64,000 bases of DNA from Olavius algarvensis Delta 4 endosymbiont (lineage in GTDB: Bacteria; Desulfobacterota; Desulfobacteria; Desulfobacterales; CAJINA01). Position 1 is the stretch's first letter. Each line of letters begins with the position of its first letter. The notes beneath the pieces are model-generated. The model made no database searches, was not told the origin of the DNA, and saw only the letters and a program-made list of their open reading frames with translations. The stretch is taken from positions 36,699-100,698 of the forward strand of contig CAJINA010000104.1 of assembly GCA_905176665.1 (NCBI GenBank), given 5' to 3'. The translations under genes were made by a program, and so were the position numbers. Shown piece after piece: positions 21,946 to 63,434 of the stretch.

Positions 21946-22468
21946 TCTATATGAGGACCTGGAATACCGACGTTATGCCTTGATAGAGGAACTCGAACTC
22001 TGCTCGAACGCTGTGCTCAGATTTCGACCAGGGCCGGATCGCTGGTCGATCCTCATGGTCGTTGAACACATGATCATGGGCGAAAGAGGTGTTAGGTTGA
22101 AAGGGGCCGAAATCCTTGGCGAACAGATCGAAGCTGACCCGCAATCCGAAAAGCTGTTCAAAATGGTCATTGAGATCCTGGATAAAGACGTGCCGGTGGA
22201 TGTCCCGGATCCGAGCATAGAGCCGGTTGGCAATAAAGACCTGCCGGACCTCCTAAAGCTCTGGGATACTGAACGTGAAAAACTCGGTAATCTCCTGGAG
22301 ACCGTCACACCGGCAGATGTGGGCAAAGTGGTGGCCAGGCATACGGTCACCGGGCCACTGGATCCAGTCAGGACATTAGAATTGGCCCTGGCGCATTTCG
22401 AAACCCACCACCGCCAAATCCGCCGTATTCTCAAAGATAAAAAATCAGGTGCGGCAATCAATCCTTAG
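21920..22468 (+). CDS. DinB/YfiT-like (DinB_2 superfamily) four-helix protein
   Basis: 182 aa. Pattern of conserved His in helices (HMIMGE..., HFETHH) resembles DinB_2. Overlaps the FGE gene by 26 nt. Confidence 0.45.
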   Translation: MKMIAKLRNLYEDLEYRRYALIEELELCSNAVLRFRPGPDRWSILMVVEHMIMGERGVRLKGAEILGEQIEADPQSEKLFKMVIEILDKDVPVDVPDPSIEPVGNKDLPDLLKLWDTEREKLGNLLETVTPADVGKVVARHTVTGPLDPVRTLELALAHFETHHRQIRRILKDKKSGAAINP

Positions 22469-23087
22469 CGCGTTCATGCGCTGAAAGCTTTAAGTCAGGA
22501 TAGAGGGTGTGGACACAATCGGGGCAGAGGCTGTGGGTCAGTTGGGTGCCGGCCTTGCGCCCCAAGTAGTCTTCAATGGTTTCCCACTGATCTTCAGGGC
22601 TTCTTATCTTCTTGCATTGTGAACAGATGGGCACCATTTCTCTCAGAACGACAAGTTCTGTAATGTCTTCCAATGCCAATATGGCGTATGGTTGCCCCTC
22701 GTGTTGAAAGGGCGACCCGGAAACCAGATAAACACACCGGTAAACATCATTCTTTGCCTGTCTTAAAAATTCGACCTTTCTTTTGACAACATGCTGCCCG
22801 GTGCAGCAATCACGAACCGTATTCCTGATCACACAATCGGGACAATGTTCTGCTGTCCCGCAACCAGCCGGGGCATTCATAGCATGGACACAATGCAGAA
22901 TCTCACCGCTCAAACGATGAAGGGAAACATCCTTCATGTTATTGGTAAGTTGAGCGCCGTAATGGTTCATGTCTACAACCCGAGCGTCTTGATCTACAAT
23001 GAATAGCGCGGACGGTATGGTATCGATGACGGTTCGTAGATTCATATCTTTCAGGCTTTTTGGAGACGCCATGGTACAATCCTTCAT
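22458..23087 (-). CDS. Cys-rich PAS-domain sensor protein with C-terminal CxxC…H…H…CPxC zinc-ribbon-like tail
   Basis: PAS fold (IPSALFIVDQDARVVDMN...). Cys cluster CGTAEHCPDC...DCC. C-terminal PICSQCKKIRSPEDQWETIEDYLGRKAGTQLTHSLCPDCVHTLYPD. Confidence 0.7.
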   Translation of the reverse strand: MKDCTMASPKSLKDMNLRTVIDTIPSALFIVDQDARVVDMNHYGAQLTNNMKDVSLHRLSGEILHCVHAMNAPAGCGTAEHCPDCVIRNTVRDCCTGQHVVKRKVEFLRQAKNDVYRCVYLVSGSPFQHEGQPYAILALEDITELVVLREMVPICSQCKKIRSPEDQWETIEDYLGRKAGTQLTHSLCPDCVHTLYPDLKLSAHERAKD

Positions 23088-23232
23088 ATAATTTTCGAGT
23101 CGATGGGTTGCCTACCTCTCTACCCTGGTATCGGCCCTGCCTTGTAATCCTTTAGTTTAACTATAAAAATAAATACAAAACACTACTTGTAAAGGAAACA
23201 GACTTCAGCATTCGCTCTTACTTATCCAGTGG

Positions 23233-26200
23233 CTAGCGTCGACCATCACCTACAATGGCATAGGGCGCCCAGAAAATCGGATGGGCGTATGAAAACCCCT
23301 GGTCATGATTCTTGGCAATCATGGCATTCATTGTCTGACGCAGCGCTTCGGCCCGGTTGATACCCGGGTTTTCCAATTGCCGTTTGAACAGGTCAGTGGT
23401 TAATAGTTTCGCACTCACCGTCTCCACCGGCCAGCCGGTCACCAGCATAGACCGGGCCCCGGCATAGAAAAAGGCTTGTCCCAATCCGGACACTGCTTCG
23501 GCGCCCTCACCTTCGGCCGCCCCGGTGTTGCAGGCCGACAAAACAACCCAGTCGGCATTGAGCCGCAGCCCCATGATTTCACCCATGGTCAGCAGGCCGT
23601 CCTCGTCTGGGTTACCGGTGATATCCGGGGCGCTCAGGGCCAGGGCCGGCTGATCGAGCCCGTCCAGGTCGCCCGGCACCAGGCCGTGGGTGGCAAAGAC
23701 CACCACCTTGCGGTTGCTCAGGTCCAGGGATTTAACAATCTGCTCGCTGGCCTGTTTACCGATGAACACATCCTTTTCAGTGTCCGCATTCAGCGAAACG
23801 GCAATATTGAGGACCTCCTCACGGGTATCCGGCAGACGGTTAAGCATGCTGATGTCAATGGATGCAATCTTCTTCTTGTCGATCCGGCCGGCTTCGGTCA
23901 CCCGGATGCCGCGCATCTGGATGGGAGCATTGCGCATGGCCAGCATCTGGTCCTGCATGGCTTCGTCCTCTGCTTGGGCCAGTTGATCTTTATTGAAGTA
24001 GGGATCACCGAATCCGGCATAGGCGGCCCGTTCAGTTTGCTGGGGAACAATGGAACGCAGGTTGACCAAAGCGGATACCGACGGCAGGACCGTCACCGAA
24101 TGGTGTCTTATCAACCAGTCGACATCCTGATAATTTGAAAAGACCGGTTTGCCGGTTGCGGCTTCGGTTTTGAATTTCGCCTTAGTCGGCAGGATGGAGA
24201 GTGGTATCTGGCCGATCGGTCCCTGGGTGATCACCATCAGATGCTCGGCTTCTTTCCAGCCGGTTTCGACTGGTTTAAGCGTCTGCTTATACAGACTGTA
24301 GGCCAGTTCCAGGTCAAACTGCGGCAACTCCAGGATCCCGAACACCTCACCCGGATTGAGGGCTTTTCGCAATTTGCCCACCACGCCTGCCATTTTTTCT
24401 TTTCCGATGGGAACCTTGGCCAGTGCTACTGGCCCGGTTTTGGGGATGGCCCAGATAAAGGTATAATCTTTTCCCGAGAAGATAGATATCAGGGTCTCGC
24501 TCTCATCCAACGTAGTTCGGACCTTGGCCACATCGGCACTCTCCAGGTTTACGATATTGGCGTACTCGGGAAAACTATTTTTAATCTCCTGTTCCAAAGT
24601 CTTTACTGCCAGATGAACGGTCGTTACCTGGTCGCGCAGTTCATTGATGACTTCGGTATTGATCAACTCTAGTGGTGCAAAAAGGGCATTGTTCAGTCGG
24701 TTTTTAAAAGCGGACAGTTTCAATTCCAAATCCTGACGCTGCCGGATCAGGCCAGCCAGGCCAGGGTCTTTCACTGCAACACGAGCTGAGCTTTGGGCTA
24801 CTGCCCGGCCGATCAGCTTGTCCTGCAAGGCGCTGGTATATTTAAAACTATTTTCGGCGTCCTCAGATTTGCCACTGTCGGCCAGCAGCGCCAGGTAGGC
24901 TTCCAGAATCAGTTTAAACTTAAATGGCCGCGCATTCTCCGAGTTGATGCCCTCCTCCTTGGTTTCCCATTTTTTCAGCAGCATGGGAACATATTGGTCA
25001 AATGTTTTCAGCGCGGTCTTGGGTTGGCCGAACCTTGCCAATGCAATAGCGTGTAACCCTTTCAGTTCAGCCTGTTTATAGGTATCCGCACCTATAATTT
25101 GTTCACTTTGCCGGACGGCGAACTCAAGCTTATCAATGGCCGCCTGAATATCGCCGCTCATCAACAGAGCCAGCCCCCATTCGGCACTCCCTTTAAACCG
25201 ACGATTAAAGGTCGCCGGGTCGGTTTTCAACTCATCCTCGATCAGCTTGAACTGCTCCAGCGCGTCCCTGTACTGACCAAGGGCAAACAGGGCTCGCGCA
25301 TAATCTTCCCGGGCTTTTGCCCTAACAAAGGCGTCAATGGGAGCCCGCAAAGACATGGTCACATGCAACGCCGTCCGCGCACATACGCTGGCATCTTCAA
25401 AGCGGCCCTGTGCGAAAAAAATGCGGCTCAAAGTCAGGAATGCGTGCGGTTGGATGTTTACGTGCCCCAGGCGAACAGCTTCGCGCACCTGTATTTCTGC
25501 TTCCGTTACACGCCCCTGCGCCAGCAGAACCCGAGCAAGATTTACATGGGCTTCGGGTTCATGCGAGGTTGGCTCGGCCAAGCGGCCATTGTGGCGGAAC
25601 TTATCAAGGTCAATCAGAAGCTGTCGATACGCCTGCTCGGCCGCCGCCAAATCCCCGCGGGCAAAATCAACTGCTGCCCTGGACCGGGTGACGACTGCCT
25701 TCATCAGAAGTGATCTGGCGTGGGTACTGTGGTTTCGCCCCGTCCAGGATCTATATTGGCTATAGTAACGATTGGCTGCAGAAAGCGCCGGTTCGGCTGC
25801 TTTGTAATCGCCGGCCTCTGCCAGGATTGAGGTCTTGAAGGCATACGCTTCAGATTTATTCCCAGACATCCTTTCAGGCGCTTTGGAAATTGCCAGGTCT
25901 GCCAACCGGATTGAAAAGCTGAGGTTGCCCAGTAAAAATTCATCATAGGCCCAAGTGGCATAAAATCTGGGCTCATCATACTTGCGTTGTTTCTTTACGC
26001 CTTTATAGAGGTCATTGAGTTCCGCGTCGGTATACCTTTTACGGGGAATCAGGAATTCTGCGGGCACATTGGGTGGGTCTTTATAGTAGGCCACCTTCCG
26101 CTCGATCAACTCCCCCAACCCTCGTGGCGGAACGATCTTATATGTCTCCTGAAACTCAATGGCCACATCCTGGGCCTCTTGAACAGACATAGTGTTGGTT

Positions 26201-26274
26201 TTACACCCGGTGATGATTCCAACCATAGCTATGAATACAAGGATCTTGAGCAACCGCGCAGAAGTCGTATGCAT
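23233..26274 (-). CDS. CHAT-domain (caspase-like) protein with TPR repeats, lipoprotein
   Basis: Lipobox IITGC after a signal peptide. Central TPR-like repeats. C-terminal CHAT with His/Cys dyad context (VVFATHG... VVLSACNTG). Confidence 0.85.
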   Translation of the reverse strand: MHTTSARLLKILVFIAMVGIITGCKTNTMSVQEAQDVAIEFQETYKIVPPRGLGELIERKVAYYKDPPNVPAEFLIPRKRYTDAELNDLYKGVKKQRKYDEPRFYATWAYDEFLLGNLSFSIRLADLAISKAPERMSGNKSEAYAFKTSILAEAGDYKAAEPALSAANRYYSQYRSWTGRNHSTHARSLLMKAVVTRSRAAVDFARGDLAAAEQAYRQLLIDLDKFRHNGRLAEPTSHEPEAHVNLARVLLAQGRVTEAEIQVREAVRLGHVNIQPHAFLTLSRIFFAQGRFEDASVCARTALHVTMSLRAPIDAFVRAKAREDYARALFALGQYRDALEQFKLIEDELKTDPATFNRRFKGSAEWGLALLMSGDIQAAIDKLEFAVRQSEQIIGADTYKQAELKGLHAIALARFGQPKTALKTFDQYVPMLLKKWETKEEGINSENARPFKFKLILEAYLALLADSGKSEDAENSFKYTSALQDKLIGRAVAQSSARVAVKDPGLAGLIRQRQDLELKLSAFKNRLNNALFAPLELINTEVINELRDQVTTVHLAVKTLEQEIKNSFPEYANIVNLESADVAKVRTTLDESETLISIFSGKDYTFIWAIPKTGPVALAKVPIGKEKMAGVVGKLRKALNPGEVFGILELPQFDLELAYSLYKQTLKPVETGWKEAEHLMVITQGPIGQIPLSILPTKAKFKTEAATGKPVFSNYQDVDWLIRHHSVTVLPSVSALVNLRSIVPQQTERAAYAGFGDPYFNKDQLAQAEDEAMQDQMLAMRNAPIQMRGIRVTEAGRIDKKKIASIDISMLNRLPDTREEVLNIAVSLNADTEKDVFIGKQASEQIVKSLDLSNRKVVVFATHGLVPGDLDGLDQPALALSAPDITGNPDEDGLLTMGEIMGLRLNADWVVLSACNTGAAEGEGAEAVSGLGQAFFYAGARSMLVTGWPVETVSAKLLTTDLFKRQLENPGINRAEALRQTMNAMIAKNHDQGFSYAHPIFWAPYAIVGDGRR

Positions 26275-26544
26275 GCCACTTCCTTTCTCTTTACAAACTG
26301 ATGCATGGGAATTTTTGATACCAATCCAAAAGTTGCAGAGGTACTATCGGTATGTTCGGAAAAGGGATGCTTTCTTATACCAAAAACTGTTGAGATTTTC
26401 AATTTTTCCAGAAAAAGTACCCCGGTATGAGTAGCGGTATAGGTAGGCGCCCGCATACGGATCACAGCTTCAGATCTTAAGGGCGGAAATGTGTTTAATT
26501 TCAATCTGCCAAACGGTTATGATCCTAATATTTGAACAAAGCAA

Positions 26545-27945
26545 CTAACGCTCAGGGTCATAACGGTACCAACACCATCTGCCGTCGGACTTTTGGGCCA
26601 TGTGTGAAACCATCAGCGGCGTCCGATACCCCTTGCGCTGGACATATCCGTCTACCCGGGCCCGGTTGCCCTGCCGGTCGAAACGGGTCAGAATGATCTG
26701 GTGGTATTGTATGGGGCGTTTCTGGTAGGCGCGCCGGATGAATCCCATTACCTGCTGCCGATTGTAGATGCCGCTGGACAGATAGTCAGGGGAGAAATAG
26801 TCCTCCAACGCCTTAAAGTCACTGCTCACGAGCAGGCGGGAATAGGCAGTCAAGAAATCCTGCACGTCATGGGGGACGTCTATGCGGTGGGTCTCTATAT
26901 CGCTGGCTCGGGCGACCCTAAACATTTTCATTTGTGATTTCGCTTTCTGAATGAGCCGGCGACGTTTGGAATGTACCGGCACCTGGGCGTGGACAATATT
27001 CAGAAAGCCGCAAATTTTGCCGCTGACCGTGCCATCGCTGCGGATCAAATAATGTTGAGTCAACGCCTCGGGACTCTGGTCAGAAAGCATCTCCAAGCCG
27101 CGCAGGTGTACGAATGTCTCCAAATGCCGAGGATCAATGCCGAAGACATAGGGTTCCCCCTGGAAGGCAACATAGGAAGTCACCCGCCGGGCACCATAGG
27201 CCGAATAGTCCAGGCCCAGGGCTACATCTGCGTGCAGGTAATCGAAAACGACGCCACTGCCGGGTGCTGAGTGTTCCGCGATAAATCGTAATGTGTTGTC
27301 AACGCCCTCCTGGGAGATGTAATAGGTCACACCCTCCCAAACGTAAAAAGTCTTCTGGTCGGTGAGAAAGGTTGCGGCGGCTAGCACGTCCGCCAATGAT
27401 TGGGTATTGAAGTCAATAGGCACGAAATGCACCCAATCGGGCCGCCGGCCCAATAGCTTTTCAACGCGGGCCTGTTTATCCATTGAAGTGGCCGGCAGAT
27501 CGACTTCGAAAAAGCGTGCCTGCGGGTAGGAATCGTGAAAACGGTAGGCCCGGCTGTCGAACCCGGCGCCCAGGATCACCACCTGCCGGCAGCCTTCCTG
27601 GAGGGCCTCTGCAAGCAGCGCATCCATGTGCAGGGTGCGGGCATTGACGTAATAGAACGCCCCGCTTTTCATCTGGTCCATTGCGATCTTGGCCGCCGCA
27701 TAGTCCATGCCCAGACCGGGAAAGCGTCCTTCCCACTCAGGGTTTAGAAAATGCCGGGCCAGATAATCCGGGTTTCTGGTTTTGGGGTCCGGGTCAGTAG
27801 CCCCGATGGTACGAAAAGCGCAGGTTGCTTCGGCCGTACGGGAAATCTGGCCGGGATCGACCCCAAAGGCCTGACCAGGCAGCAGGCTGCCCAACAGGCA
27901 GACCATGCAGATAAATACTGATAGATTGTGCCGGATTCTTTTCAT
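26545..27945 (-). CDS. Secreted class I SAM-dependent methyltransferase (leucine carboxyl methyltransferase, LCM/TcmP-like) with C-terminal SnoaL/DUF4440-like domain
   Basis: Signal peptide. RNPDYLARHF...VVILGAGFDSRAYRF motif of the LCM family. C-terminal about 150 aa small alpha+beta domain. Confidence 0.65.
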   Translation of the reverse strand: MKRIRHNLSVFICMVCLLGSLLPGQAFGVDPGQISRTAEATCAFRTIGATDPDPKTRNPDYLARHFLNPEWEGRFPGLGMDYAAAKIAMDQMKSGAFYYVNARTLHMDALLAEALQEGCRQVVILGAGFDSRAYRFHDSYPQARFFEVDLPATSMDKQARVEKLLGRRPDWVHFVPIDFNTQSLADVLAAATFLTDQKTFYVWEGVTYYISQEGVDNTLRFIAEHSAPGSGVVFDYLHADVALGLDYSAYGARRVTSYVAFQGEPYVFGIDPRHLETFVHLRGLEMLSDQSPEALTQHYLIRSDGTVSGKICGFLNIVHAQVPVHSKRRRLIQKAKSQMKMFRVARASDIETHRIDVPHDVQDFLTAYSRLLVSSDFKALEDYFSPDYLSSGIYNRQQVMGFIRRAYQKRPIQYHQIILTRFDRQGNRARVDGYVQRKGYRTPLMVSHMAQKSDGRWCWYRYDPER

Positions 27946-27998
27946 CAGCTTAAGGATTTATAAGGTAGCAAAAATAAATCTGTTGATAGTTGAAGTTT

Positions 27999-28610
27999 TT
28001 ATTTTCCAGGATAGATGTCGTCGTCGGGAAAACGTTCGGAAGCACATTCCGGGCAGATCCCGTGACTGAATTTGGCTTCAGACCGTCTCTGGATATAGGC
28101 CTCGATTTTATTCCAGTTCCCTTCATCATCTCTTACTTTCTTGCAGTAGGAGCAAACGGGCAGGATGCCTTGCAGGGTCTTGATCTCATTCAAAGCCTCT
28201 TGAAGCTGGTCTATCAGCTTTTCACGTTCCTGTTCAGCCCTTTTTCGTGCGGTGATATCGGTGGCAATTTCAAGTCTCACCATGCGACCATTGATCCAGG
28301 TAATGGCCCTGTCCCGAATGTCATACCAGCGACGGCTTACCGTATTTTGAAATTCCCAGGCATACAGCCCTTTCGGGGTTCCATCGGGTGCAACCAGTTT
28401 GTCGTTGCTGCAAAAATCGCACGGCGCAGCCTGGTTGCTCTGGAGAACCTGCCAGCAAGGCTTCCCAATACCATCTCCGAATATCTCGCGGGCATACTTA
28501 TTTAAAAACAGGAGTTCGTACGTCTGCAGGTCGGCTACGTAGACGATGGCATCCAGGCTGTCCAGAACCGTTAAAAGGATATTATGGGATGCTTCCAGAT
28601 TAGCGTTCAA
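27999..28610 (-). CDS. Cys-rich PAS sensor protein with C-terminal Cys4His2 zinc-ribbon-like tail
   Basis: PAS with C-x11-C-x2-C (GKPCWQVLQSNQAAPCDFCSND). Tail LPVCSYCKKVRDDEGNWNKIEAYIQRRSEAKFSHGICPECASERFPDD. Confidence 0.75.
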   Translation of the reverse strand: MNANLEASHNILLTVLDSLDAIVYVADLQTYELLFLNKYAREIFGDGIGKPCWQVLQSNQAAPCDFCSNDKLVAPDGTPKGLYAWEFQNTVSRRWYDIRDRAITWINGRMVRLEIATDITARKRAEQEREKLIDQLQEALNEIKTLQGILPVCSYCKKVRDDEGNWNKIEAYIQRRSEAKFSHGICPECASERFPDDDIYPGK

Positions 28611-28640
28611 TTACGACTCTCCTCTTCGTATCCGACAACC

Positions 28641-30521
28641 CTATTCAGGATACTCCAAGTCGGGGTATAATTCCCGGGCACATTCCGGACAGATGCTGTG
28701 GCTGAACTGGGCCTCCGAGTGATCCCGGATATAAGATTCGATCTGGTTCCAATAGCCGCCATCATCGCGAATCTTCTTGCATGAAGAGCATATGGGCAGC
28801 AGACCGCTTAAAACGCGCACTTCACTGAGCGCCGCCTGTAATTCGCCGATTAACCGTTCGCGTTCCTTTTCCGATTTTTTAGCAGCCGTCACATCCCGTA
28901 TTGATTCAATGGCGCCAATCGCCTCGCCACGGGTATTGTATAGCCTGGCGGCAGATCCGGCCAGGTAACTACCGCCCTCACCCATTAGCGGATTGAAGGA
29001 CTCGCTGGCCATGATGTCTCCTTCATCCCTGAAACTCAGGTAGGTGCTTTCCCACTTCGGATCGCCTTTCAATACAAGGTCTATCAACAGCGGCCGGGGG
29101 ATGCCATAAAACGGGACGGCATGGGCATGATTGCCTTTACCGAGCATGTTCTGTTTACTTACACCGGAAAGCCGCTCCATGGCCCGATTCCAGGCAACGA
29201 CCCGGCCCTGGGTATCGATCACCCAGGTGGGATCCGGCAGAAACTCAATGATGTCGGCCAGCCGTTGCTCTGAATCGGCCAGGGCCTGCTCAGCCTCTTT
29301 CCGGTGGGTAATGTCCCGGGCGACCACGACAATACGCTTCTGTTCATCAATAGTGGTTAACTCCAACTTCACTTCCGTCCAGAACAGGTCCCCGTTTTTT
29401 CTTCTTGACCGCCATTCAAAAAGTTGCGGCCCCTCTTCAATACCCTTTTGTATATACTTAGCAGCGTCTTGCTGGGTATAGGGCGGCTCACCCTGGGACA
29501 GATCCTCGGCCGTGCAGTTCAGCGCTTCTTCCCGGGTCATCCCGAACATCTCGCTGACCGTCCGGTTGACATCCAGGATCCGGCCTTGCATGTCATGAAT
29601 AAAGACCGCATCGCTGGTAGCGCCGAAAATCTCCCGGTAATACCGCTCGGAGTTGGCCAACTGCTGTTCCATCTGTTTGCGGGCAGTAATGTCGATGATA
29701 ACCCCTTCCGAATATCCTTGGTCAGGATAAAGGATAGCGCTCAGGGCGATATTTATAGGCGTACCGTCTTTTCGGGCCACCTCAATCTCATAGCCTTCCA
29801 CGAACCCGTCTTGTTCCAGCTTTTCAATGAGTTCTTCGCGACGCCTGCGGTCGGTATAGTGTTCCGATGTGATGAATTCAGCAATGAATTCATCAACGGA
29901 ATCATAGCCCATCATTCTGGCCAACGATTCGTTGGCGGCCAGAAACTTACCGTCTTCAATTCTCGTGCGATATATCCCTACCAACGCCGTTTCAAAAAGC
30001 TGGCGATATTTCTGCTCGTTCTCTTTCAGGGACGCTTCGGTCTTTTTCTGCAGCGTTAAATCGGTATGGGCGCCCAGCATGCGCATTGGTTTGCCGGTCT
30101 CATCGCGGATGGCGATACCTCGGCAGCGCACCCAGACCGTCGAACCATCTTTGTGCCGATACCGCACAACTTGATCATAGGGATGCGCAGGATCCTCGCA
30201 ATGCTTGTTGAAATTCTCTAGGGCCACCTGCCGGTCGTCCGGGTGAATGATATCCTGCCATTCAGCGGCCAGGTGTTCTTTGTCTCGGGGGTCATGACCG
30301 AGTAACGTCCAGAACCGATCACTCATCCACTCAATTTCCGGCTTTTCCAGGTCCCAGTACCAGATACCATCCAATGACCCATTTTGCAGAAAATCAAAAA
30401 TGGACGGATCGGACTGGATAAGGGCGTACAATTCCTTTTTTAGGTAATGGGCTTCCGGGTCCAGATGCTGGACTTGGGCGGCCAAATCGGGGTGGGTCGG
30501 CTTCGGAGGCATAATGAGCAC
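28641..30521 (-). CDS. Multi-PAS (about 4 PAS) sensor protein lacking a kinase, with C-terminal Cys4His2 zinc-ribbon-like tail
   Basis: Repeated PAS/PAC blocks. No HisKA/HATPase. Tail LPICSSCKKIRDDGGYWNQIESYIRDHSEAQFSHSICPECARELYPD. Confidence 0.8.
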   Translation of the reverse strand: MLIMPPKPTHPDLAAQVQHLDPEAHYLKKELYALIQSDPSIFDFLQNGSLDGIWYWDLEKPEIEWMSDRFWTLLGHDPRDKEHLAAEWQDIIHPDDRQVALENFNKHCEDPAHPYDQVVRYRHKDGSTVWVRCRGIAIRDETGKPMRMLGAHTDLTLQKKTEASLKENEQKYRQLFETALVGIYRTRIEDGKFLAANESLARMMGYDSVDEFIAEFITSEHYTDRRRREELIEKLEQDGFVEGYEIEVARKDGTPINIALSAILYPDQGYSEGVIIDITARKQMEQQLANSERYYREIFGATSDAVFIHDMQGRILDVNRTVSEMFGMTREEALNCTAEDLSQGEPPYTQQDAAKYIQKGIEEGPQLFEWRSRRKNGDLFWTEVKLELTTIDEQKRIVVVARDITHRKEAEQALADSEQRLADIIEFLPDPTWVIDTQGRVVAWNRAMERLSGVSKQNMLGKGNHAHAVPFYGIPRPLLIDLVLKGDPKWESTYLSFRDEGDIMASESFNPLMGEGGSYLAGSAARLYNTRGEAIGAIESIRDVTAAKKSEKERERLIGELQAALSEVRVLSGLLPICSSCKKIRDDGGYWNQIESYIRDHSEAQFSHSICPECARELYPDLEYPE

Positions 30522-31076
30522 TCATGAGGATGAACGCTTTCTGCTCGCATTAGTGATGTGGTGAGGCCCACCAGACTGCAGAAAGGGGTGTCGCGTAGCA
30601 ACCTTCTCTGTTCAACCTACCAATCATATTAATTATTCTATAGTAAATTCAAACGGAAGACAAGCAGAGAAACGCCCTGCCAAGGTTACATCCGAAAGCG
30701 GTGTGATCCTCAAATACAAAAAGTCCGCAGCCAGCGACCGCGGACTTACATTAAAACGCTTTGTATGGTGATTAAGACAGCATGCAGGCTCGTGAACGTT
30801 TTCCGCTTTCGCGGGCCGCCGCGCGAGAACACCGGTGAAATTCAGCGTAACTCGTAGAACTCATGTCACACTTGCGCAGGTCTTCAACCAAGCGCTTTTT
30901 TTCCATGCTGCAGCATTTGGCACTCTTATTTGCAGAGGATTTCATAAGCAGTACACCCTCTAGTATATCAGGGAAAACCCTGGTGAATGTCAATCAGAAC
31001 TTCACCACCGATAGGTGGTGTGTCTAACCTTAAGATAAACGCCTACCGACCAAAGTCAATTGCAATAGCTTGTTAA

Positions 31077-33095
31077 TCAATGACCTTTCAACCGGGCTTT
31101 GACAAGGTTCAGCACTCCACCTGCCAGCACAATATCAACCTGTCGCTGGTTGAGGTGATGTTCGACCTTGTAAGTTTCTCCCCTGGTTGGATTGATCACC
31201 GTTAAACCTGAATCTGGTCGCAGGTTTACATGGATGTCGGCAATCTCGATCTGATCGCCCTGCTCAACTGCACCGTAATCGGCTGGGTCGGCAAAGGTCA
31301 GCGGCAATATCCCGAAATTGATTAAATTCTGGCGATGAATCCGGGCAAAACTCTTGGCTACGACTGCGCGCAGACCAAGGTAGCGGGGGGCCAGGGCAGC
31401 GTGTTCGCGACTCGAGCCCTGCCCGTAGTTGTCCCCGCCAACCCATAGGAAGCCACTTTCCTGATAAGCCCGGGATCTTTCATAAAGGGTCTCATCGACT
31501 CGGCTGTAAACAAATTTGCTGATCTCCATGATATTGCTGCGATATGGCAAAATTGCCGCCCCGGCCGGCATGATCTCGTCGGTGGACACATCGTCGCCTA
31601 CTTTTAAAAGGACTGGTCCGGATATCGAATCCGGCAACAAGTCGAAAACCGGCAGGGGTTGGATATTGGGTCCCATCTCCAGTTCTACCGGGCCACTCCC
31701 GTTATCCGGCGGCGGCGTCAGCATCTTGGTGTTGATGCGCAGTGTTTTGGGCTCCTTGTAAGTTGGGTAGGGCATATCGAGTGTGCGTGGATCCGTGATA
31801 ACGCCGGTAATAGCGGATGCAGCAGCCGTTTCCGGGCTGCACAAATATACCTGGTCTTCCCTGGTACCGGACCGTCCCGGGAAATTTCGCGGTACCGTAC
31901 GCAGGCTGATCTTACCGGTGGCCGGCGCCTGGCCCATCCCGATGCAGCCGTTGCAGCCCGCCTGGTGAAAGCGCGCCCCGGAATGGAGCAACTTTTCCAC
32001 CATGCCGGCATTTATGAGGTTTTCGAGCATTTGCCGTGACGTAGGGTTGATATCGAAGGAAACGCGTTCAGGTACCTGTCTGCCATCCACCATAAGGGCC
32101 GGGATAGTGAAATCGCGCTGACCGGGATTGGCCGAAGATCCGATGTAAGCCTGGAAGATTTCACGGCCGGCCACTTCGCGCACCGGCACCACGTTTCCCG
32201 GACTGCTGGGCAACGCAATCAGCGGTTCCAGAGTTGACAGATCGATCACGTCTGTAAATTTATACTCGGCATCGGTGTCGGCAGAAAGGGGGCGCCAATC
32301 CGCCCCGCGCCCCTGGACGTTCAAGAACTTTTTTACAACCTCGTCCGATGGAAAGACCGTGGAGGTGGCCCCCAGTTCCGCCCCCATGTTTGCGATGACA
32401 TGGCGGTCCATGACACTTAGACCATCCAAACCGGGCCCGTAGTATTCAAGGACTTTGCCCAGGCCGCCGTTCACGCCGTGCCGCCTGAGCATTTCCAGGA
32501 TGACGTCCTTGGCACTTACCCATTCGGGCAGCTTGCCTTCCAGGCGGACGCCCATCACGGCCGGCATGGGGATATAGATCGGCTCACCGGCCATGGCCAT
32601 GGCCACTTCCAGGCCTCCGGCCCCCATCGCAAACATACCCAGCGCTCCGGCAGCCGGGGTATGACTGTCGGACCCAAGCAGGGTTCGTCCCGGCCTTCCA
32701 AAGCGCTCCATGTGCACTGGATGGCTGATGCCGTTGCCGGGCCGGCTGTACCAGACACCGAACTTTTCACAGGCACTCCGCAAGAACAGGTGGTCGTCGG
32801 CATTTTTATAATCCGTCTGGATCAGATTGTGATCAACATATTGGACCGAAAGCTCTGTTTTTACGTTTTCAATCCCCAGGCTGTCGAACTCCAGCATCAC
32901 CATCGTACCGGTAGCGTCCTGAGTTAGGGTCTGATCGATCTGCAACCCGATTTCCTTTCCTATTTCCATGCTGCCATGCACCAGATGGGCAGCGATCAAT
33001 TTTTCGGTGACGTTGGCTCCCATGTTCACCTCCCGCTGGTTGTATATATGCGACAAAGGTTCGTTCCGCGTTGCAGGCTTATTGAGAATACGCAT
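31077..33095 (-). CDS. Aconitase-family hydratase (aconitate hydratase, mitochondrial/AcnA-type domain order, about 670 aa)
   Basis: GSDSHT, CNGCIGMGQAP (Fe-S ligand region), C-terminal swivel domain VGGDNYGQGSSREHAALAPRYLG. Confidence 0.85.
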   Translation of the reverse strand: MRILNKPATRNEPLSHIYNQREVNMGANVTEKLIAAHLVHGSMEIGKEIGLQIDQTLTQDATGTMVMLEFDSLGIENVKTELSVQYVDHNLIQTDYKNADDHLFLRSACEKFGVWYSRPGNGISHPVHMERFGRPGRTLLGSDSHTPAAGALGMFAMGAGGLEVAMAMAGEPIYIPMPAVMGVRLEGKLPEWVSAKDVILEMLRRHGVNGGLGKVLEYYGPGLDGLSVMDRHVIANMGAELGATSTVFPSDEVVKKFLNVQGRGADWRPLSADTDAEYKFTDVIDLSTLEPLIALPSSPGNVVPVREVAGREIFQAYIGSSANPGQRDFTIPALMVDGRQVPERVSFDINPTSRQMLENLINAGMVEKLLHSGARFHQAGCNGCIGMGQAPATGKISLRTVPRNFPGRSGTREDQVYLCSPETAAASAITGVITDPRTLDMPYPTYKEPKTLRINTKMLTPPPDNGSGPVELEMGPNIQPLPVFDLLPDSISGPVLLKVGDDVSTDEIMPAGAAILPYRSNIMEISKFVYSRVDETLYERSRAYQESGFLWVGGDNYGQGSSREHAALAPRYLGLRAVVAKSFARIHRQNLINFGILPLTFADPADYGAVEQGDQIEIADIHVNLRPDSGLTVINPTRGETYKVEHHLNQRQVDIVLAGGVLNLVKARLKGH

Positions 33096-33345
33096 CGACA
33101 GGTGTCATATCCGCACGGATAACACGCTCCGGAACTGTCGGATTTCGCCAAGATCTTTCAATGATTTCGGTTCTGAAACTTGAGTGCGGAATATGCAGGG
33201 CAAGCACGGGCTTCGCTAGGTTATACGGAGGACGAACCTTGATAAAATTCAGGGAATTGAAAGATCTGATAAAAGATGGATACGCAACCGGTGGATGTCA
33301 AATGGCTGTCAGGTTGCCTGAAAGGCACATTCGCATTTTAAGCCG

Positions 33346-33615
33346 TCATTCGGAATACTTTTTCCACAGGTGCCCATAAGCGCCGTTTTGCTTGATCCGA
33401 TCCAAGGAAGTCTGGAGTTTATTCACAAGAACATCCTCAGTTTTGCGGTTCACCGCCAGGTAATAATCATAGCGGTCATCCAGCAGGATCGTTTTCACTA
33501 CAAGATATTTTGAGGTAGTTGCTTTAAGGTGCGCCGGGTAATTCTCAGCGAGATTGTTTCCCTTAATTTTATCTATTTCGGAAATAGTCCCTGAGCACGC
33601 CCTTGACCAGATCAC
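33346..33615 (-). pseudogene. Relic C-terminal fragment of a solute-binding protein family 3 (amino-acid ABC substrate-binding) gene
   Basis: 89-aa ORF ...YYLAVNRKTEDVLVNKLQTSLDRIKQNGAYGHLWKKYSE matches only the C-terminal about 60 aa of SBP_bac_3 proteins. No N-terminal domain. Overlaps the 3' end of the caspase-like gene. Confidence 0.4.
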
Positions 33616-35278
33616 CGATCACTCCACCGGCTGTATAGTGATTGCCCCGGGCTTTTTTCTTATAGACCTTGGCATTTTCCGTATCATACAGAAATACCGT
33701 GCAACTTTCTTTAATGCTTATCCCTACATCGATGTCAACCAGAACAACCAGATTCGCGCCGACCTGAAGGCCGATGTCACGCACGGTTTTCAAGTCCGGT
33801 TCCAATTTCGAGAACATGTTCTTGCGCTTCCAAAGATTGGGGCTGTTGTGTTTTTCAAATATGCGCGGCTGCGTCAGTTCCACGGGAATGCTATCGGACG
33901 TTTCATATGAGTATTGCAAGGCAACCCGTTCATCACGGTCCAGGGTGGAAACGATCCCCTCCAGGGCGCTACTTTCCACGTTCTTGAGCCAGGCCTCCAG
34001 GTTCGCCTCAGCGGTATAAATGTTGGGGGGCAGGATTGCCAACCGGTAAGCTTCACGGGCGACCCTGCGTGAATTTGTGGTTTGAGGCGAAAGAGCTGCC
34101 TGGAGGCTACTTGCTGTAGCGGTTTTTTCAGCGGTCTTCCTCTTGCGCTCCATCTCCTCCATTTGGGCCTGCAATTTGGCATACTCGATTTCCTGCTTTT
34201 GTTGTTCCAGCTTGAGCTTTTCCAGTTCAATGGTTTTCTGCTGGGCCAGCTGTTCCTTCTCCAGGGCCAGTTTCTGTTTTTCCATTTCAAAACGCTGGCG
34301 TTGGAGTTCCAGTTCAGCCTGGGCCACGGTGGCCTGCTGCCGGGCCCGGTTCTGCTGCTGCCGCTGTGCTTCCAGGGCGACGTGTTTACGGGCATGCTCC
34401 GCGGCCCAGGCCGTGTTGTAAAGCACGAACTGACCGTCCTGGTCCATGGGCGTCTTCAAGCGCCCCACGTTGGGCCGCTGGTCTCCGATCTCGGTCACCT
34501 TGGTCCAGACCCGGGTGTGGAACAGGTTTTCCAGGTCGATCACCTCGCGGTCGTTCTTGCGCAGGGCATCGATCAGGTAAAAGGCAAACAGGCTGTGGCC
34601 TTCGGCGCCGCCGTCCGCCACCGGCTCCACCCCGCCCGACGAGATCACCTGGCGACTGCGCAAGGAGGCTTTCTGGACCAGCTTTTCCTTATAGCGGCGG
34701 TCGTTTAAAGACATCAGCGAGGGACCGCCGCGCAGCATGGACCCGCTGTAGCAGGAGTCGGCAATGACCACCACGTTCTTGGTCTGCAGTTTTTCCGAGC
34801 TGAGCACCGCCTTGATGTAGGAGTTGGCCACCCAGGTCCCGGGGTTTTTCAGGGCACCTTCGGCCGGCACCCAGTAGCCGTCGCCGGTAAAGTCGTCCAA
34901 CTGGCCGTGGCCGGCATAATAGACGAACAGGTTGTCGTGCGCGCCCATGGACTGGGCCAGGTAGCGCAGGTCCTGGATAATCTGCAGGCGGCTGGCCTGG
35001 CGGTCGGTGCGCAGGATGACACTGTCGGGTTTGAACCCGTAGCGGCCGACCAGGGTCTCTTTGATGACCGTGGCGTCCTTTACAGCCGTCTTGAGTCGCG
35101 GCCATTTGGCATAGTCATTTATGCCGATGATCAGGGCGTGGTAGGCACCCCAGGAACCGGACGCTCCGGATTGCGGGACGATGGCCAGGCCGCGCTGTGT
35201 GGATTGAGCTAAAACGGGATGATTGAGAAGAAAAAACAGGGATACTGAAAGGGTCAGAATAAGCCGTTTCAAAAGCAA
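33569..35278 (-). CDS. Secreted caspase-like (peptidase C14/orthocaspase) protein with Q/E/K-rich coiled-coil linker and C-terminal CsgG/LpoB-like(?) domain, paralog 1
   Basis: Signal peptide. HALIIGINDY...YYAGHGQL (His)...VIADSCYSGS (Cys) dyad. Long ELQRQRFEMEKQKLALEKEQL coiled coil. C-terminal about 170-aa domain shared with the paralogs. Confidence 0.85.
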   Translation of the reverse strand: MLLKRLILTLSVSLFFLLNHPVLAQSTQRGLAIVPQSGASGSWGAYHALIIGINDYAKWPRLKTAVKDATVIKETLVGRYGFKPDSVILRTDRQASRLQIIQDLRYLAQSMGAHDNLFVYYAGHGQLDDFTGDGYWVPAEGALKNPGTWVANSYIKAVLSSEKLQTKNVVVIADSCYSGSMLRGGPSLMSLNDRRYKEKLVQKASLRSRQVISSGGVEPVADGGAEGHSLFAFYLIDALRKNDREVIDLENLFHTRVWTKVTEIGDQRPNVGRLKTPMDQDGQFVLYNTAWAAEHARKHVALEAQRQQQNRARQQATVAQAELELQRQRFEMEKQKLALEKEQLAQQKTIELEKLKLEQQKQEIEYAKLQAQMEEMERKRKTAEKTATASSLQAALSPQTTNSRRVAREAYRLAILPPNIYTAEANLEAWLKNVESSALEGIVSTLDRDERVALQYSYETSDSIPVELTQPRIFEKHNSPNLWKRKNMFSKLEPDLKTVRDIGLQVGANLVVLVDIDVGISIKESCTVFLYDTENAKVYKKKARGNHYTAGGVIGDLVKGVLRDYFRNR

Positions 35279-35616
35279 CCTCCAGCCAAGGGAACCATCA
35301 AATGTAGTCTCAATTGAAATGGGTCTGCGGATGCTAATATAGTTTCAAAATAAAGGCAAGTGTGGGCGCTCATGTATCCAATTATCCGTAAACGTTCTTT
35401 GTCAGCCAAGTCAGATGGATTGCTTGAGGTGCCTATTGGCAATGACGATGGACCAAATATCTTAAATTGGAACACTTAAAATGGCTGGCTCATTACTTTG
35501 AAGGCAGGTTTTTAGGAAGCACGATTTTGAGGTAACAATGATGCAATCGGCAGGTAATACAATTAGAAGATAGTTAACCAATGGCCAGTCGATTCTTTAA
35601 AGCCAGGCATCCGATA

Positions 35617-37311
35617 TCATTGGTTCTTAAAATAGTCTTTCATAAGGCTGCGTACATAACCCTCAACGCTGTTAGGATATGCAAGCCAGGCGGGCCTGAA
35701 ATTTTTAGAGTAAATCTTTGCCTTAGCTAAGTCATATAAATAGAAGGTAAAACTTCCGGGATAGATTTCACCTTCTATCATCAAAACAAGATCCACGTCA
35801 ATTTTCAGATTGAGTTTATTAACTTCTTCCCAATCCGGCTTCAATCTGGAGAATATCGATTTCTTTTTCCATACATCATTTTTCGTAATATCACTTAGAA
35901 TTGTTACGCCTTCCGTAAAGTCCTCAAATTCTTCGTAACCATGGGTTAATTTTAATCTATCATCATCAAACGTTACATTGGCGACTGCTTGTATGCTGGC
36001 CAATTGATAACTACGCAGATATCTATCATCATTCGTGGAAGCATATAAATTCTGAGGTAATATCGCCAATTTGTATTCTTCTCGGGAAGCTTTCCGGTTT
36101 AACGCTCCGGGTTGATTTTTTACGGGAGGAGATACTGCCGCGACCATTTGCTGGCCAACCGGCGGGGCGGTTTCTTGAGGTTTGCGCTTCATATCTTCCA
36201 GTCGCGCCTGCAGCTTGGCATATTCGATCTCCTGTTTTTGCTGTTCCAACTTGAGCTTTTCCAGTTCGATGGTTTTCTGCTGAGCCAACTGCTCTTTTCC
36301 CAATGCCAGCTTTTGCTTTTCAATCTCAAAGCGCTGGCGCTGTAGCTCCAGTTCAGCCTGGGCCACCGCGGCCTGCTTTCAGGTCCGGTCCTGCTGCTGC
36401 CGCTCGGCTTCCAAAGCCGTGTGCTTCCGGGCGTGCTCCGCGGCCCAGGCCGTGTTGTAAAGCACGAACTGACCGTCCTGGTCCATGGGCGTCTTCAAAC
36501 GCCCCACGTTGGGCCGCTGGTCGCCGATCTCGGTCACCTTGGTCCAGACCCGGGTGTGGAACAGGTTTTCCAGGTCGATCACCTCGCGGTCGTTCTTGCG
36601 CAGAGCATCGATCAGGTAGTAGGCAAACAGGCTGTGGCCCTCGGCGCCGCCGTCCGCCACCGGCTCCACCCCACCCGACGAGATGACCTGACGCGAACGC
36701 AGAGATGCTTTCTGGACCAGCTTTTCCTTGTAGCGGCGGTCGTTTAGCGACATCAACGACGGTCCGCCTCTCAGCATGGAACCGCTGTAGCAAGAGTCGG
36801 CAATGACCACCACGTTCTTGGCCTGCAGTTTTTCCGAGCTGAGCACCGCGTTGATGTAGGAGTTGGCCACCCAGGTCCCGGGGTTTTTCAGGGCACCTTC
36901 GGCCGGTACCCAGTAACCGTCGCCGGTAAAGTCGTCCAACTGGCCGTGGCCGGCATAATAGACGAACAGGTTGTCGTGCACGCCCATGGACTGGGCCAGG
37001 TACCGCAGGTCTTCGATGATCTGCAGGCGGCTGGCTTTACGGTCGGTACGCAGGATGACGTTATCAGGTTGAAATCCGTAGCGGGAGATAAGAGTCTCTT
37101 TGATAACCGTGGCATCCTTCACTGCGGTCTGCAGCCGCGGCCACTTGGCATAGTCATTTATGCCGATGATCAGGGCGTGGTAGTCACCCCAGGAACCGGA
37201 CGCACCGGATTGCGGGGCGATGGCCAGGCCGCGCTGTGGGGATTGAGCTAAAACAGGATGATTGAGAAGAAAAAGCAGGAATACCAATAAGGTAAGAATT
37301 CTCAAATGCAA
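35617..37311 (-). pseudogene. Caspase-like (C14) paralog 2 interrupted by an in-frame TGA (36379-36381); otherwise the same architecture
   Basis: ORFs 36379-37311 and 35617-36366 are collinear with paralog 1. The TGA AAG replaces the CGG CAG (Arg-Gln) of the paralog inside the coiled coil. No SECIS-like hairpin follows. Confidence 0.6.
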
Positions 37312-37415
37312 GAATAGCCTCCGCTGTAATGTTACCGGCCAACTCCAATGAAAATGATACCCACTCTATTAGTACAATCTGGTGTCAAAGGCAAGTTGCC
37401 GGGTTGGATTGGAGG

Positions 37416-38015
37416 CTATCCTTGCTTATAAAATTTGGGATAATTTTCCTGGGAGCAATCGGGACACATGGAGTGCGGAACTTCTATGTCTGAATAATCT
37501 TTTATATATTGCTCGACGATCACCCAGCGGTTGTCAGGCTCGCGGACTTTGTTGCAACGGATACAGATGGGCGCGATTTCCCCCAGGGCACCCAATATCA
37601 ACTTGTTCATGGCGCGTACCCGCAGGCTCATGCTCTCCAGCAGCTCCAAGGCTAACTCCGGATTTTTCCGGATTTGGTTTTGGAAATCTTCCCGTTCGAT
37701 ACAGACCACTTGCACATAAGTGTCGGCCACTACAGTGGCGGAACGATTTTGCCGGTCAATAAGGGACATCTCTCCAAAATAGCTTTTGGGCCCGAAGGTC
37801 TGAATGTGCTTCTGGTATTTTTCCCCATAGCCAGTATAAATTTTGACCTGACCGTCGATCACGATAAAGAGCCGGTCACCCTGTTCGCCTTCCTGGATGA
37901 TGACATCCTCCCGTTCAAATTCATATTGTTTCGCTTTGTCACTAAGCTGTTTCAGGTCTAGCTCCGGTAGTTTTCCCAGCAAGGGAATTGCTTGAAAAGT
38001 TGCAGACCAGTCCAT
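37416..38015 (-). CDS. Cyclic-nucleotide-binding (cNMP/CAP effector) domain protein with C-terminal Cys4His2 zinc-ribbon-like tail in place of an HTH
   Basis: GEQGDRLFIVIDGQVKIY...YFGEMSLIDRQNRSATVVA cNMP-binding signature. Tail APICIRCNKVREPDNRWVIVEQYIKDYSDIEVPHSMCPDCSQENYP. Confidence 0.8.
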   Translation of the reverse strand: MDWSATFQAIPLLGKLPELDLKQLSDKAKQYEFEREDVIIQEGEQGDRLFIVIDGQVKIYTGYGEKYQKHIQTFGPKSYFGEMSLIDRQNRSATVVADTYVQVVCIEREDFQNQIRKNPELALELLESMSLRVRAMNKLILGALGEIAPICIRCNKVREPDNRWVIVEQYIKDYSDIEVPHSMCPDCSQENYPKFYKQG

Positions 38016-41000: not shown

Positions 41001-41074
41001 AACATCAAGATGATTAGGCGGATATTGTTTTTAAGGGCCTCCATTTGTACCCACCTTCCAATCCGTGTACACAC
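38048..41074 (-). CDS. CHAT-domain protein with TPR repeats, secreted/lipoprotein (paralogous architecture to 23233-26274)
   Basis: Signal peptide ending LLAGAC. TPR-like repeats. C-terminal CHAT (ILHIASHGEF...VTLSACNTAMG). Confidence 0.85.
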   Translation of the reverse strand: MCTRIGRWVQMEALKNNIRLIILMFLLPLLAGACVSSSTNLQITIPQGRENLHLEQELFQSRNLGVQMGSSGSGGGVRQSYHFDFNLKETQRIRYAYLSIDTLDVDHPENPLFLNGHPIGFLKRAGYGINQDEWYAGQAGPKKRKKQARTQRYLPASYFRSGKNTIEFGHQKVRSANRGGRINYERYIIKRINLAIIRTHTSGRSQLSATGVKEDRRFPDQFALFKDLNDEELYIALVKLPYLLAEISDPGSLAGDSLSYVYARIGDYYRWTGLYNKSLDYHRKASRLQAEQPLTLLTPKVRSGLALAYNFVGDYHSSVAECEKALKEIERVKENLSRPVPKHIIGKANYLEFLLSAYLAINHYHLQDGSEAEYYAYRVINNFDDTWAHYNTRTTEIGKFVPLAIAYQTMGDAALRNGGYVEALRLYREAEKYLGYEVRPAIYHDQMISIQIGIAKTLYHQGQYKPAREILQNVKSPTNAFLWRSYQLQGMIAESENKLELAVEFYQKAIDAIEFSRARLTSHGLKINFMSDKQEPYARMVKCLVKLERTKAAYNYVEKSKARAFLDLIARSDKIIGQKNEALKEITEEEKRLRENLLNVQYRTEMNTRMFQERGAAIDNSREIAAARGALGEFFSRWFRRNKDFASLRSADTLPIEKVQALLPADAHLVEYYFRDKHLFAWIIGPQSFRFVQKQIDASELLELVSAYRDLISRPDTVRGLEVAAQEAPRQTPTRESLAAISRQLEDVLVTDILSGIPAGKIYIIPHGILHYLPFQALTLEGKYLIESYEIGYSPSASVLGHVFDKKKTVKKAVLALGNPNLGNPQMTLPYAEVEVRDIRQFFNQTTVLTQNQASESAFKQSAGNYDILHIASHGEFNQDTPLLSCLRLAPGNDEDGRLETAEIFELNLNAYLVTLSACNTAMGKMASGDELMGLTRAFMFAGTPSIMSTFWSVNDKSTSVLMKHFYANPKSMNKFAAMRQAQLEMIGNPEYRHPYYWAAFQVIGDYR

Positions 41075-44207: not shown

Positions 44208-44212
44208 GATTT

Positions 44213-52990: not shown

Positions 52991-53224
52991 TTGACTTACT
53001 CAAAGTCGGCTAAGAAAATAGTGAGTATCTATTATAGAATTTGTTCTACCTTTTGTCATCCAGTAACGCAGTCCCTGAGTTATACATATCATTGTGGGCC
53101 ATCATCATCGCTAAATAACTCCTTCGATATTCATATATGAAAGGCCTAACTCATTAAATATATTAGTTTTGTCCAATTTTCACGGACCTAAACTGCCTCA
53201 ATGGAGATACAGTTTTTGGGGGGA

Positions 53225-53303
53225 GAAGGTAGCGACGGGAGTCGAACCGGCTACCCTTTTTGAAATCATTGAAGATATTGATATGGCCACGGTACATTCG
53301 CAG
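53225..53303 (-). repeat. tmRNA/tRNA 3'-end-like fragment, variant sharing island-side sequence with copy at 62933 (copy 2)
   Basis: ggtagcgacgggagtcgaaccggctaccc then tttttgaaatcattgaagatattg...gtacattcgcag, the same downstream block as 62965-63012. Confidence 0.55.
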
Positions 53304-53696
53304 AACCGGACACGCTTTATTCATAAAAAGTTTACAGAAAATCCAAATCTTTAGCAGATATCGTGACCGGCAAGAGTAATCGAACACTTGATTATTTGTT
53401 GCCTAAACGACAATTTGAGTTCCTAAATAACTTTCTGACTGGTCGATTATTTGACAAATTAGGCACTTATAGTATATAGTGCCGGTTATGAATATTTTCG
53501 GAGTCGACTTCACATCATCTGACTTTGTGCTGCTGGGGATATGCGGCGGAATTGTAATCTTCCTAATTGCCAACCGCATAGTCGGTGCACGGAAAAAAGG
53601 GGAGAATTAGGATCCCTGCCAAGAATTCTGTTTCACCAGTATTCATAAGGCAGGAGACGCCTCTTTCCAATCTTCAAGCCTCTCCATCTTAAAATT

Positions 53697-63432: not shown

Positions 63433-63434
63433 AA

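Follow-up and report, generated by a model that had tools for sequence, protein, structure and literature searches.

How does a sensor protein pass on its signal when nothing that resembles a known output domain follows its sensory part? This question is raised by a 64 kb stretch of contig CAJINA010000104.1 from the Olavius algarvensis Delta 4 endosymbiont (in the following 'the window', by which we mean the whole stretch of DNA that was analysed), in which four otherwise different proteins end with the same short, cysteine-containing tail. Three of them are PAS proteins of 209, 203 and 626 aa and the fourth is a cyclic-nucleotide (cNMP)-binding protein of 199 aa; all four genes lie on the minus strand, and their open reading frames (ORFs) were verified (Table 1). 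An earlier note on this DNA had singled out these proteins as different sensors with one common C-terminal tail, and had proposed that the tail is the effector. We show here that the tail is indeed common to the four and that it belongs to a very large family found in many phyla. Very probably it is a metal-binding output module that is driven through a dimeric coiled coil. Our preferred, though still tentative, reading is that its target is not nucleic acid but a conserved, shared partner protein, which it would contact in a regulated manner and whose gene would lie elsewhere.

A conserved stalk and cysteine knot in a very large family

Each of the four proteins is closed by the motif C-x2-C-x29-C-P-x-C, in which the Cys residues span 37 residues in every case. 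A six-frame regular-expression scan of the 64 kb retrieved the full motif exactly four times, and in shuffled versions of the window the expectation per window was 0.0 for the full motif, 0.05 for the first knuckle and 0.25 for the second. Fourteen columns are invariant across the four tails (L, P, C, C, K, R, W, E, Y, H, C, P, C and P), and the consensus that had been proposed agrees with them. The description of the tail as a Cys4His2 module holds for the four Cys and for one His, which is the single invariant His of the window tails and forms part of H-x2-C-P-x-C; however, the second His (tail position 24) is present in only one of the four window copies, as against 79% of the family members. 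When 387 unique tail copies were compared, on which all conservation percentages given here are based, the four Cys were conserved in 387 of 387 (100%) and W14 was effectively invariant (100%), followed by P(-1) (99%), R8 and G12 (97% each), D10 and E18 (96% each), K5 (95%), Y20 (93%), H31 (91%), and D9 and P35 (89% each). Twelve polar positions (K5, K6, R8, D9, D10, Y13, Q16, E18, H24, S25, S30 and H31) are 79–97% conserved. A lack of Cys conservation in orthologues had been named in the earlier note as a possible refutation of its reading; the four Cys are invariant in the orthologues of the cNMP protein as well, one of which (P0279) carries Gln in place of His31 and Cys in place of Arg8. 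Between these orthologues the tail is 88% identical, as compared with 67–87% for the ligand-binding domain, a figure that is 67–71% when true orthologues are taken, and, judged from these sequences, the tail is the more slowly evolving part.

The helix that precedes the tail carries conserved residues of its own (L-16, A-13, L-12, V-9, K-8, L-6 and G-4), with G(-4) and P(-1) of the stalk junction conserved at 95–99%, and the module is therefore better delimited as a stalk plus a knot, about 70 residues in all. We picture it as a helical stalk of three heptads (L-x3-AL-x2-VK-x-L-x-G-LLP-I) that would carry a Cys4 knot of about 45 residues. The hydrophobic residues of the stalk follow a 3-4 repeat which reaches the LP-I-C junction, in agreement with the short coiled coil that had been noticed ahead of the tail. 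From the PAS motif 'DIT-x-RK' to the first Cys, the window PAS proteins have 35, 35 and 14 residues. Among 95 unique PAS–tail junctions the DIT-to-Cys offset was 35 in 86, 21 in 4 and 14 in 1, three values that are all multiples of seven. Heptad-quantised linkers are expected where, as in proteins that join PAS to a kinase or a cyclase, the signal passes along a dimeric coiled coil that is rigid, and the quantised linker seen here implies that the stalk is a dimeric coiled coil. The spacer between the Cys pairs is 29 residues in 120 of the 120 best matches, and in 117 of them the tail ends 8–19 residues before the C-terminus.

The cNMP protein illustrates what the tail stands in for. The CRP model PRK11753 aligns with it over model positions 16–134 of 214 (E=7.4e-13), and beyond this point the tail (residues 144–194) occupies the place of the CRP hinge and helix–turn–helix (HTH), as had been proposed. 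No HTH_Crp_2 or Crp match was obtained for this protein, whereas PF13545 or PF00325 is present in the true CRP homologues that the search also returned. The protein thus shares the cNMP-binding beta-barrel and the C-helix with CRP/FNR proteins but has the Cys4 tail in place of HTH_Crp, and since HTH_Crp is absent it falls outside the CRP/FNR transcription-factor family as defined. The combination of a cNMP-binding domain with the tail is rare, with about six orthologues (59–99% identity), one of which, 69% identical, is labelled as originating from a Desulfobacterales metagenome-assembled genome. It had also been stated that none of the four proteins contains a kinase, GGDEF or HTH domain, and no Pfam or NCBIfam match to any of these was found in the four window proteins.

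An exhaustive hidden Markov model (HMM) search of 1.84 billion cluster representatives (50% identity) returned 23,721 family matches at E<=1e-3, of which 18,703 (79%) were at E<=1e-10. In reference genomes we confirmed at least 595 tail loci, and the phyla and identities given here are taken from the best 80 of these. Most of the 80 belong to Thermodesulfobacteriota; the others are from Planctomycetota (Scalindua, Anammoxibacter), Nitrospirota, Nitrospinota, Calditrichota, Spirochaetota, Chloroflexota, Acidobacteriota, Verrucomicrobiota, Lentisphaerota, Bacteroidota, Hydrogenedentota, Bdellovibrionota and Pseudomonadota. More than 12 phyla therefore carry the tail, at 63–85% identity to the window tails. 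The tail had been taken for a lineage-expanded signalling output, a view that had to be given up because the family is very large and spread over many phyla. It is nearly absent from viral contigs (5 loci) and plasmids (1 remnant). Small distant variants are present on putative viral contigs (L092, 3001–3156; L093, 3001–3129) as stand-alone ORFs of about 80–120 aa, with a shorter Cys spacing and the hallmarks kept (C-x2-C-x-R-[IV]...G-x-W...SHG[IL]CP[ED]C), and point to a broader superfamily which is likewise unnamed.

The domains that accompany the tail were counted in 144 representatives, in which 38 families were matched; the 25 most frequent are considered here. PAS was found 51 times, MASE6 24 times, REC and GAF 7 times each, SBP_bac_3 5 times, and PocR and HAMP 4 times each; 4HB_MCP, CHASE and 5TMR-LYT were also present, and all 25 families are input modules. 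No HATPase_c, GGDEF, EAL, HTH or other kinase or output domain was seen among these 25 families, in the nine longest members or in the four window proteins. The longest members have the architectures Reg_prop/Y_Y_Y-tail, dCache-HAMP-tail, CHASE4-HAMP-PAS-tail, SBP-PAS-tail and MEDS-PAS-tail; as the tail alone follows the last input module, it is the sole candidate for a cytoplasmic transmitter in such transmembrane receptors. The tail is also used as a response-regulator output, since REC (Response_reg) proteins ending in it make up 7 of the 144; P0142 has the order REC-stalk-tail-tail. At least one transmembrane segment was predicted in 41 of 107 single-copy representatives (38%) and, at the reference loci, in 44 of the 81 ORFs with a tail (54%). 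At the other extreme, mini-proteins consisting of helix and tail exist (P0254, P0185). Finally, 40 of 147 fetched representatives contain two complete sensor-stalk-tail units per chain (P0128-P0166, e.g. P0132 and P0144); many of these are about 520 aa long and have the order MASE6-tail-MASE6-tail, and in P0134 the repeated unit is REC-stalk-tail. These tandem proteins are natural single-chain 'dimers' and could be used as such for structural work.

Fold and mode of action

No significant model covered the tail in Pfam-A (2025) or NCBIfam r20, whether the four proteins, the isolated tails, the 144 representatives or the distant variants were searched; among solved structures, a PDB sequence search returned no relative and no significant fold match was obtained. 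A search of the full-text literature that can be searched, motif strings included, found no description of the tail, though one outside that literature is possible. The family is without name, known structure or described function and appears to be undescribed, and the earlier note was right in finding no named domain for it.

An AlphaFold2 (AF2) model of a 79-aa construct comprising stalk and tail of the 626-aa protein (mean predicted local distance difference test score, pLDDT, 84.9) gives the order knuckle, beta-hairpin, helix, with the second Cys pair at the helix N-terminus: C64 and C67 of the construct are located at the start of helix 65–71, outside any hairpin. In the model this order is treble-clef-like, with CxxC in a beta-hairpin and CPxC at the N-terminus of a helix, which may be compared with treble-clef fingers and rubredoxin-type knuckles, and is unlike that of the two-hairpin classical zinc ribbon. 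The zinc ribbon that had been expected, with two hairpin knuckles and a three-stranded sheet, could not be upheld, as the second Cys pair begins a helix and the Pfam zinc-ribbon models were all sub-threshold. Going by the model, the likeliest role of the four invariant Cys is to bind a single metal ion, which would be Zn or perhaps Fe.

Rubredoxin was tried as a homologue and rejected. The spacing C-x2-C-x29-C-P-x-C equals that of rubredoxin, whose Cys are at C6/C9/C39/C42 in the alignment; however, Pfam Rubredoxin (PF00301) gave no match at E<=1, hhalign returned a probability of 0.85% over 7 columns with the CPxC knuckle as the sole part aligned, and the knuckle Gly of rubredoxin is replaced in the tail by K5 (95%) and by A/V/L. 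The same spacing bears on the idea that the Cys4 centre is a redox or metal switch, which O2, reactive oxygen species or metal stress would oxidize or demetallate, so that it would serve as a second input that alters the oligomeric state. Models for such a switch are a Zn centre as in Hsp33 or RsrA and an Fe centre as in rubredoxin. The four invariant Cys with their 91%-conserved His would suit it, as would the abundance of the family, which among the best 80 loci is greatest in anaerobic lineages (Thermodesulfobacteriota, anammox Planctomycetota and Nitrospirota). However, there are aerobic carriers too (Nitrospira, Verrucomicrobiota, Bacteriovoracaceae), a pure switch does not explain some 15 conserved non-Cys positions, and it would leave the dCache-HAMP-tail and REC-tail proteins without any output. 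We regard a switch of this kind as unlikely.

The mechanism that we prefer would proceed in four steps. An N-terminal sensor (PAS or cNMP in the window; GAF, REC, HAMP and others elsewhere) would take the signal, as the domain content suggests. The signal would then run down a parallel dimeric coiled coil of whole-heptad length, a step suggested by the linker statistics, and at the end of the stalk it would alter the relative position or the exposure of the two metal knots. These, in turn, may bind or let go of a single conserved partner, which would be common to all paralogues and have its gene elsewhere. If the knots of all paralogues meet one shared partner, many different sensors would converge on one target, a convergence that may be likened to that of chemoreceptor tips on CheA/CheW or of RsbR STAS domains in the stressosome. 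By analogy, the combination of many paralogues, about half of them membrane-bound, extreme conservation and no linked partner is the pattern of outputs that share one target or currency. Examples of such outputs are the tips of methyl-accepting chemotaxis proteins (MCPs), the STAS domains of the stressosome and GGDEF domains.

The evidence used for DISCRIMINATING the mechanisms consisted of transmembrane segments, tail charge, upstream motifs, tail identity among paralogues, and neighbouring genes. It bears most directly on the nucleic-acid-binding output that the earlier note had envisaged beside a protein-binding one. On this reading dimeric Cys4 knots would act on DNA or RNA, the tail proteins would be one-component regulators of transcription or RNA, and the cNMP protein would be an analogue of CRP that has a Zn finger instead of the HTH. 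This would fit the location of the tail at the position of the CRP hinge and HTH, the conserved basic K-K-I-R patch beside the first knuckle and the fact that Cys4 knuckles are frequent in nucleic-acid binders; in addition, DNA/RNA binding has been proposed for HalOD2, another CXXC output domain (PMC5847659). However, 38–54% of the members are predicted to be membrane-anchored, often with extracytoplasmic sensors, and the net charge of the tail is on average -1.4 and lies between -1 and -3 in the window copies, which are thus all acidic even before the contribution of a metal-(Cys)4 centre, itself negative, is added. Moreover, the near-identical tails of many paralogues would read one same site, no common k-mer or palindrome that might be an operator was found upstream of 74 tail genes, and there was no significant fold match with DNA-binding fingers. 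An output role of the tail, which had been claimed when it was called the effector, is backed by the input-only partners and the heptad linkers, but its nucleic-acid version is not, and we give this version no more weight than the redox switch.

It could also be that the knot is a structural cap, which holds the coiled coil together at its C-terminus and stabilizes the dimer, and that the true output is heteromerization of the sensor domains or the stalk with other signalling proteins. Effector-less short PAS/LOV proteins are generally known to signal through protein contacts, helix-and-tail mini-proteins exist, and two tail genes are probably co-transcribed in the window and in its relatives, all of which would be compatible with a cap. 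A clamp, however, needs neither 63–85% identity across phyla nor conserved exposed polar and aromatic residues, and it accounts neither for the tail being better conserved in orthologues than any other part nor for its place as the sole cytoplasmic module of transmembrane receptors. This makes a cap slightly less probable again than the two foregoing proposals.

The conserved polar positions have a further possible use, in a small-ligand-binding or catalytic mini-domain: paired tails would have a nucleotide second messenger or other small molecule as their ligand or substrate, and the shared currency would be a chemical one, like that of GGDEF and EAL domains. R8, D9, D10, Y13, W14, E18, H24 and H31 could build a ligand site or a second metal site, and second-messenger enzymes typically show the same pattern, namely a large number of paralogues, membrane attachment of about half of them, very strong conservation and the lack of a conserved neighbour. 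On the other hand, some 45 residues are very small for an active site, no similarity to an enzyme or receptor family was seen in Pfam, NCBIfam or the PDB, and several of the conserved residues plausibly serve a beta-turn and the fold. We rate this as the least probable of the alternatives.

Several points weigh against the shared-partner mechanism itself. It is a hypothesis in which the partner is postulated and in which metal binding and dimerization are predicted; the proximity of the four Cys is read solely from the secondary-structure order of the model, and the model of a tandem unit has a mean pLDDT of 69, which is too weak for judging how tails pack against each other. Conservation in such a tiny domain can be partly structural, and D9-D10-x-G12 resembles a beta-turn. 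The K-K-I-R patch beside the first knuckle could contact nucleic acid or a nucleotide. Furthermore, the membrane segments were predicted with a crude hydropathy window, and the sequence sample is biased to the best-scoring members, though 79% of the 23,721 matches score E<=1e-10.

Tail genes and neighbours in the window

The positions of the four genes and of their tails are given in Table 1.

Table 1. Tail-bearing genes of the window and the parts of them that encode stalk and tail
Feature	Position	Strand	Remarks
209-aa PAS protein with tail	22458..23087	-	PAS_8 24.9 bits, E=1.8e-5, above Pfam cut-off; tail HMM match aa 148-198
Short stalk and Cys4 tail of the 209-aa protein	22461..22667; Cys span 22515-22625	-	PAS 'DIT' motif to first Cys, 14 residues
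203-aa PAS protein with tail	27999..28610	-	PAS_8 20.1 bits and TIGR00229 19.5 bits, residues 12-128, both sub-threshold; PAS of full length
35-residue coiled-coil stalk (DITARK...LQGILPV) and Cys4 tail of the 203-aa protein	28002..28259; Cys span 28044-28154	-	
626-aa four-PAS protein with tail	28641..30521	-	four PAS stretches (Pfam)
35-residue coiled-coil stalk (DVTAAK...LSGLLPI) and Cys4 tail of the 626-aa protein	28644..28895; Cys span 28680-28790	-	AF2 mean pLDDT 84.9
199-aa cyclic-nucleotide-binding protein with tail	37416..38015	-	cNMP_binding (PF00027) E=5.7e-23, aa 32-118
C-helix/stalk and Cys4 tail of the cNMP protein	37419..37640; Cys span 37455-37565	-	at position of CRP hinge and HTH

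The 626-aa gene lies 30 nt upstream of the 203-aa gene, the two are probably co-transcribed, and the pair is kept in the relatives L081-L084 and L086. The exact sequence of the 203-aa protein was found on 89 public contigs. Both small PAS proteins have Cys/His-rich stretches within the PAS core, HCVHAMNAPAGCGTAEHCPDCVIRNTVRDCC and CWQVLQSNQAAPCDFCSND, with which the sensor itself could bind a metal or a cofactor; a Cys-containing sensory domain, PocR, is matched by 4 of the 144 family representatives.

No gene family recurs beside tail genes, the best being present at 5 of 80 loci, and hence there is no operon-encoded partner; likewise, no sigma-factor gene was found to adjoin tail genes. In the window, two CHAT-TPR genes and caspase genes sit among the tail genes (23233-26274, 33569-37311 and 38048-41074), and the earlier note had considered a link between them and the tail. 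However, these genes are absent from L086, a syntenic relative with 84% identity, from the locus of P0278 and from the 80 reference loci, and they are therefore not part of the tail system; judged from this comparison they look like a lineage-specific island inserted into a sensor gene cluster. L086 contains three tail genes, in the order Peripla_BP_6, hybrid kinase, cNMP-tail, SBP_bac_3 protein, aconitase, 626-aa PAS-tail, PAS-tail and LCM methyltransferase, with the cNMP-tail gene directly after the hybrid kinase. In the window itself, a gene for a Peripla_BP_6 binding protein and, after it, one for a hybrid histidine kinase of HAMP-PAS-PAS architecture with REC (41142-45382, minus strand) lie upstream of the cNMP-tail gene, and the same two genes in L086 suggest a conserved sensory neighbourhood. 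Directly downstream of the PAS-tail pair, positions 26545-27945 (minus strand) encode a protein of 466 aa that contains a domain of the LCM type (leucine carboxyl methyltransferase) and, towards its C-terminus, a region with weak SnoaL-like character. L081-L084 and L086 share this arrangement; in L034, a distant homologue of the LCM protein is encoded near a tail gene.

The caspase-like (Peptidase_C14) genes at 33569-37311 on the minus strand form a tandem duplication. Between 36379-37311 and 33569-35278 the caspase parts are 94% identical, as against only 43% for the C-terminal part (35617-36366). The second copy is interrupted at the coiled-coil junction and consists of two ORFs; a frameshift, decay to a pseudogene or a true split might account for this. 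The G+C content is 0.43–0.47 at the window ends (1-4000 and 52000-64000) and about 0.52 in the centre, and the ends might mark the borders of islands or differ in origin from the rest.

The tail as a probable bacterial signalling output

A modular sensor that ends in a C-terminal transmitter is a familiar arrangement, and what appears to be undescribed is the transmitter itself, a very abundant family. With HisKA-type kinases, GGDEF cyclases and MCP signalling domains the tail shares its C-terminal place after PAS, HAMP, GAF or REC, the heptad-phased linker and the occurrence of many paralogues, about half of them membrane-bound, without a conserved neighbour. It differs from them in that it has no sequence or fold similarity to them, extends only about 45 residues beyond the helix and is built on four Cys.

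The ZAS anti-sigma domain resembles the tail in having a His-Cys-Cys metal motif and in being a cytoplasmic domain that is often membrane-tethered. ZAS domains work by sequestering a partner. The tail, however, has H-x2-C-x2-C rather than H-x3-C-x2-C, is much shorter and in the AF2 model is not all-helical, and no match to zf-HC2 and no recurrent neighbour gene were found; ZAS was rejected on these grounds.

The nearest precedent in the literature is given by the archaeal domains HalOD2 and TackOD1, which are also predicted Zn-binding CXXC modules at the output position of REC proteins (PMC5847659). HalOD2 has 20–25 residues between its CXXC pairs and a HalX-like N-terminal part and is known from a few halobacteria only, while TackOD1 has 11 Cys (PMC5847659). 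In comparison, the tail is bacterial, orders of magnitude more abundant and has a fixed spacer of 29 residues. This spacer, found in the 120 best matches and in the window, and the listed genome loci, all of which are bacterial, led us to reject HalOD2 as an identity for the tail.

It is possible, though slightly more doubtful than the shared-partner mechanism, that stalk and Cys4 knot together represent an unrecognized major class of bacterial transmitter, in which tens of thousands of sensors would feed one shared pathway or currency. With the same reserve, such a class, response regulators and transmembrane receptors of Thermodesulfobacteriota, Planctomycetota, Nitrospirota, Spirochaetota and further phyla included, would stand alongside kinase, cyclase/phosphodiesterase, MCP and DNA-binding outputs. 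In censuses, sensors are classed by their output domain, and those that seem to have none are left as 'PAS domain protein' or 'hypothetical'; a single unnamed module, some 70 residues long, forms the end of such proteins in 23,721 or more sequence clusters from many phyla. An HMM of the module, once metal and target are defined, would allow these proteins to be annotated and would make the role of effector-less PAS, GAF and REC proteins testable, and the tail could serve synthetic sensors as a very small output coupled through a coiled coil. If the tail is a true transmitter, much of the sensing of sulfate reducers, anammox bacteria, nitrite oxidizers and spirochaetes would use a pathway that has not been described.

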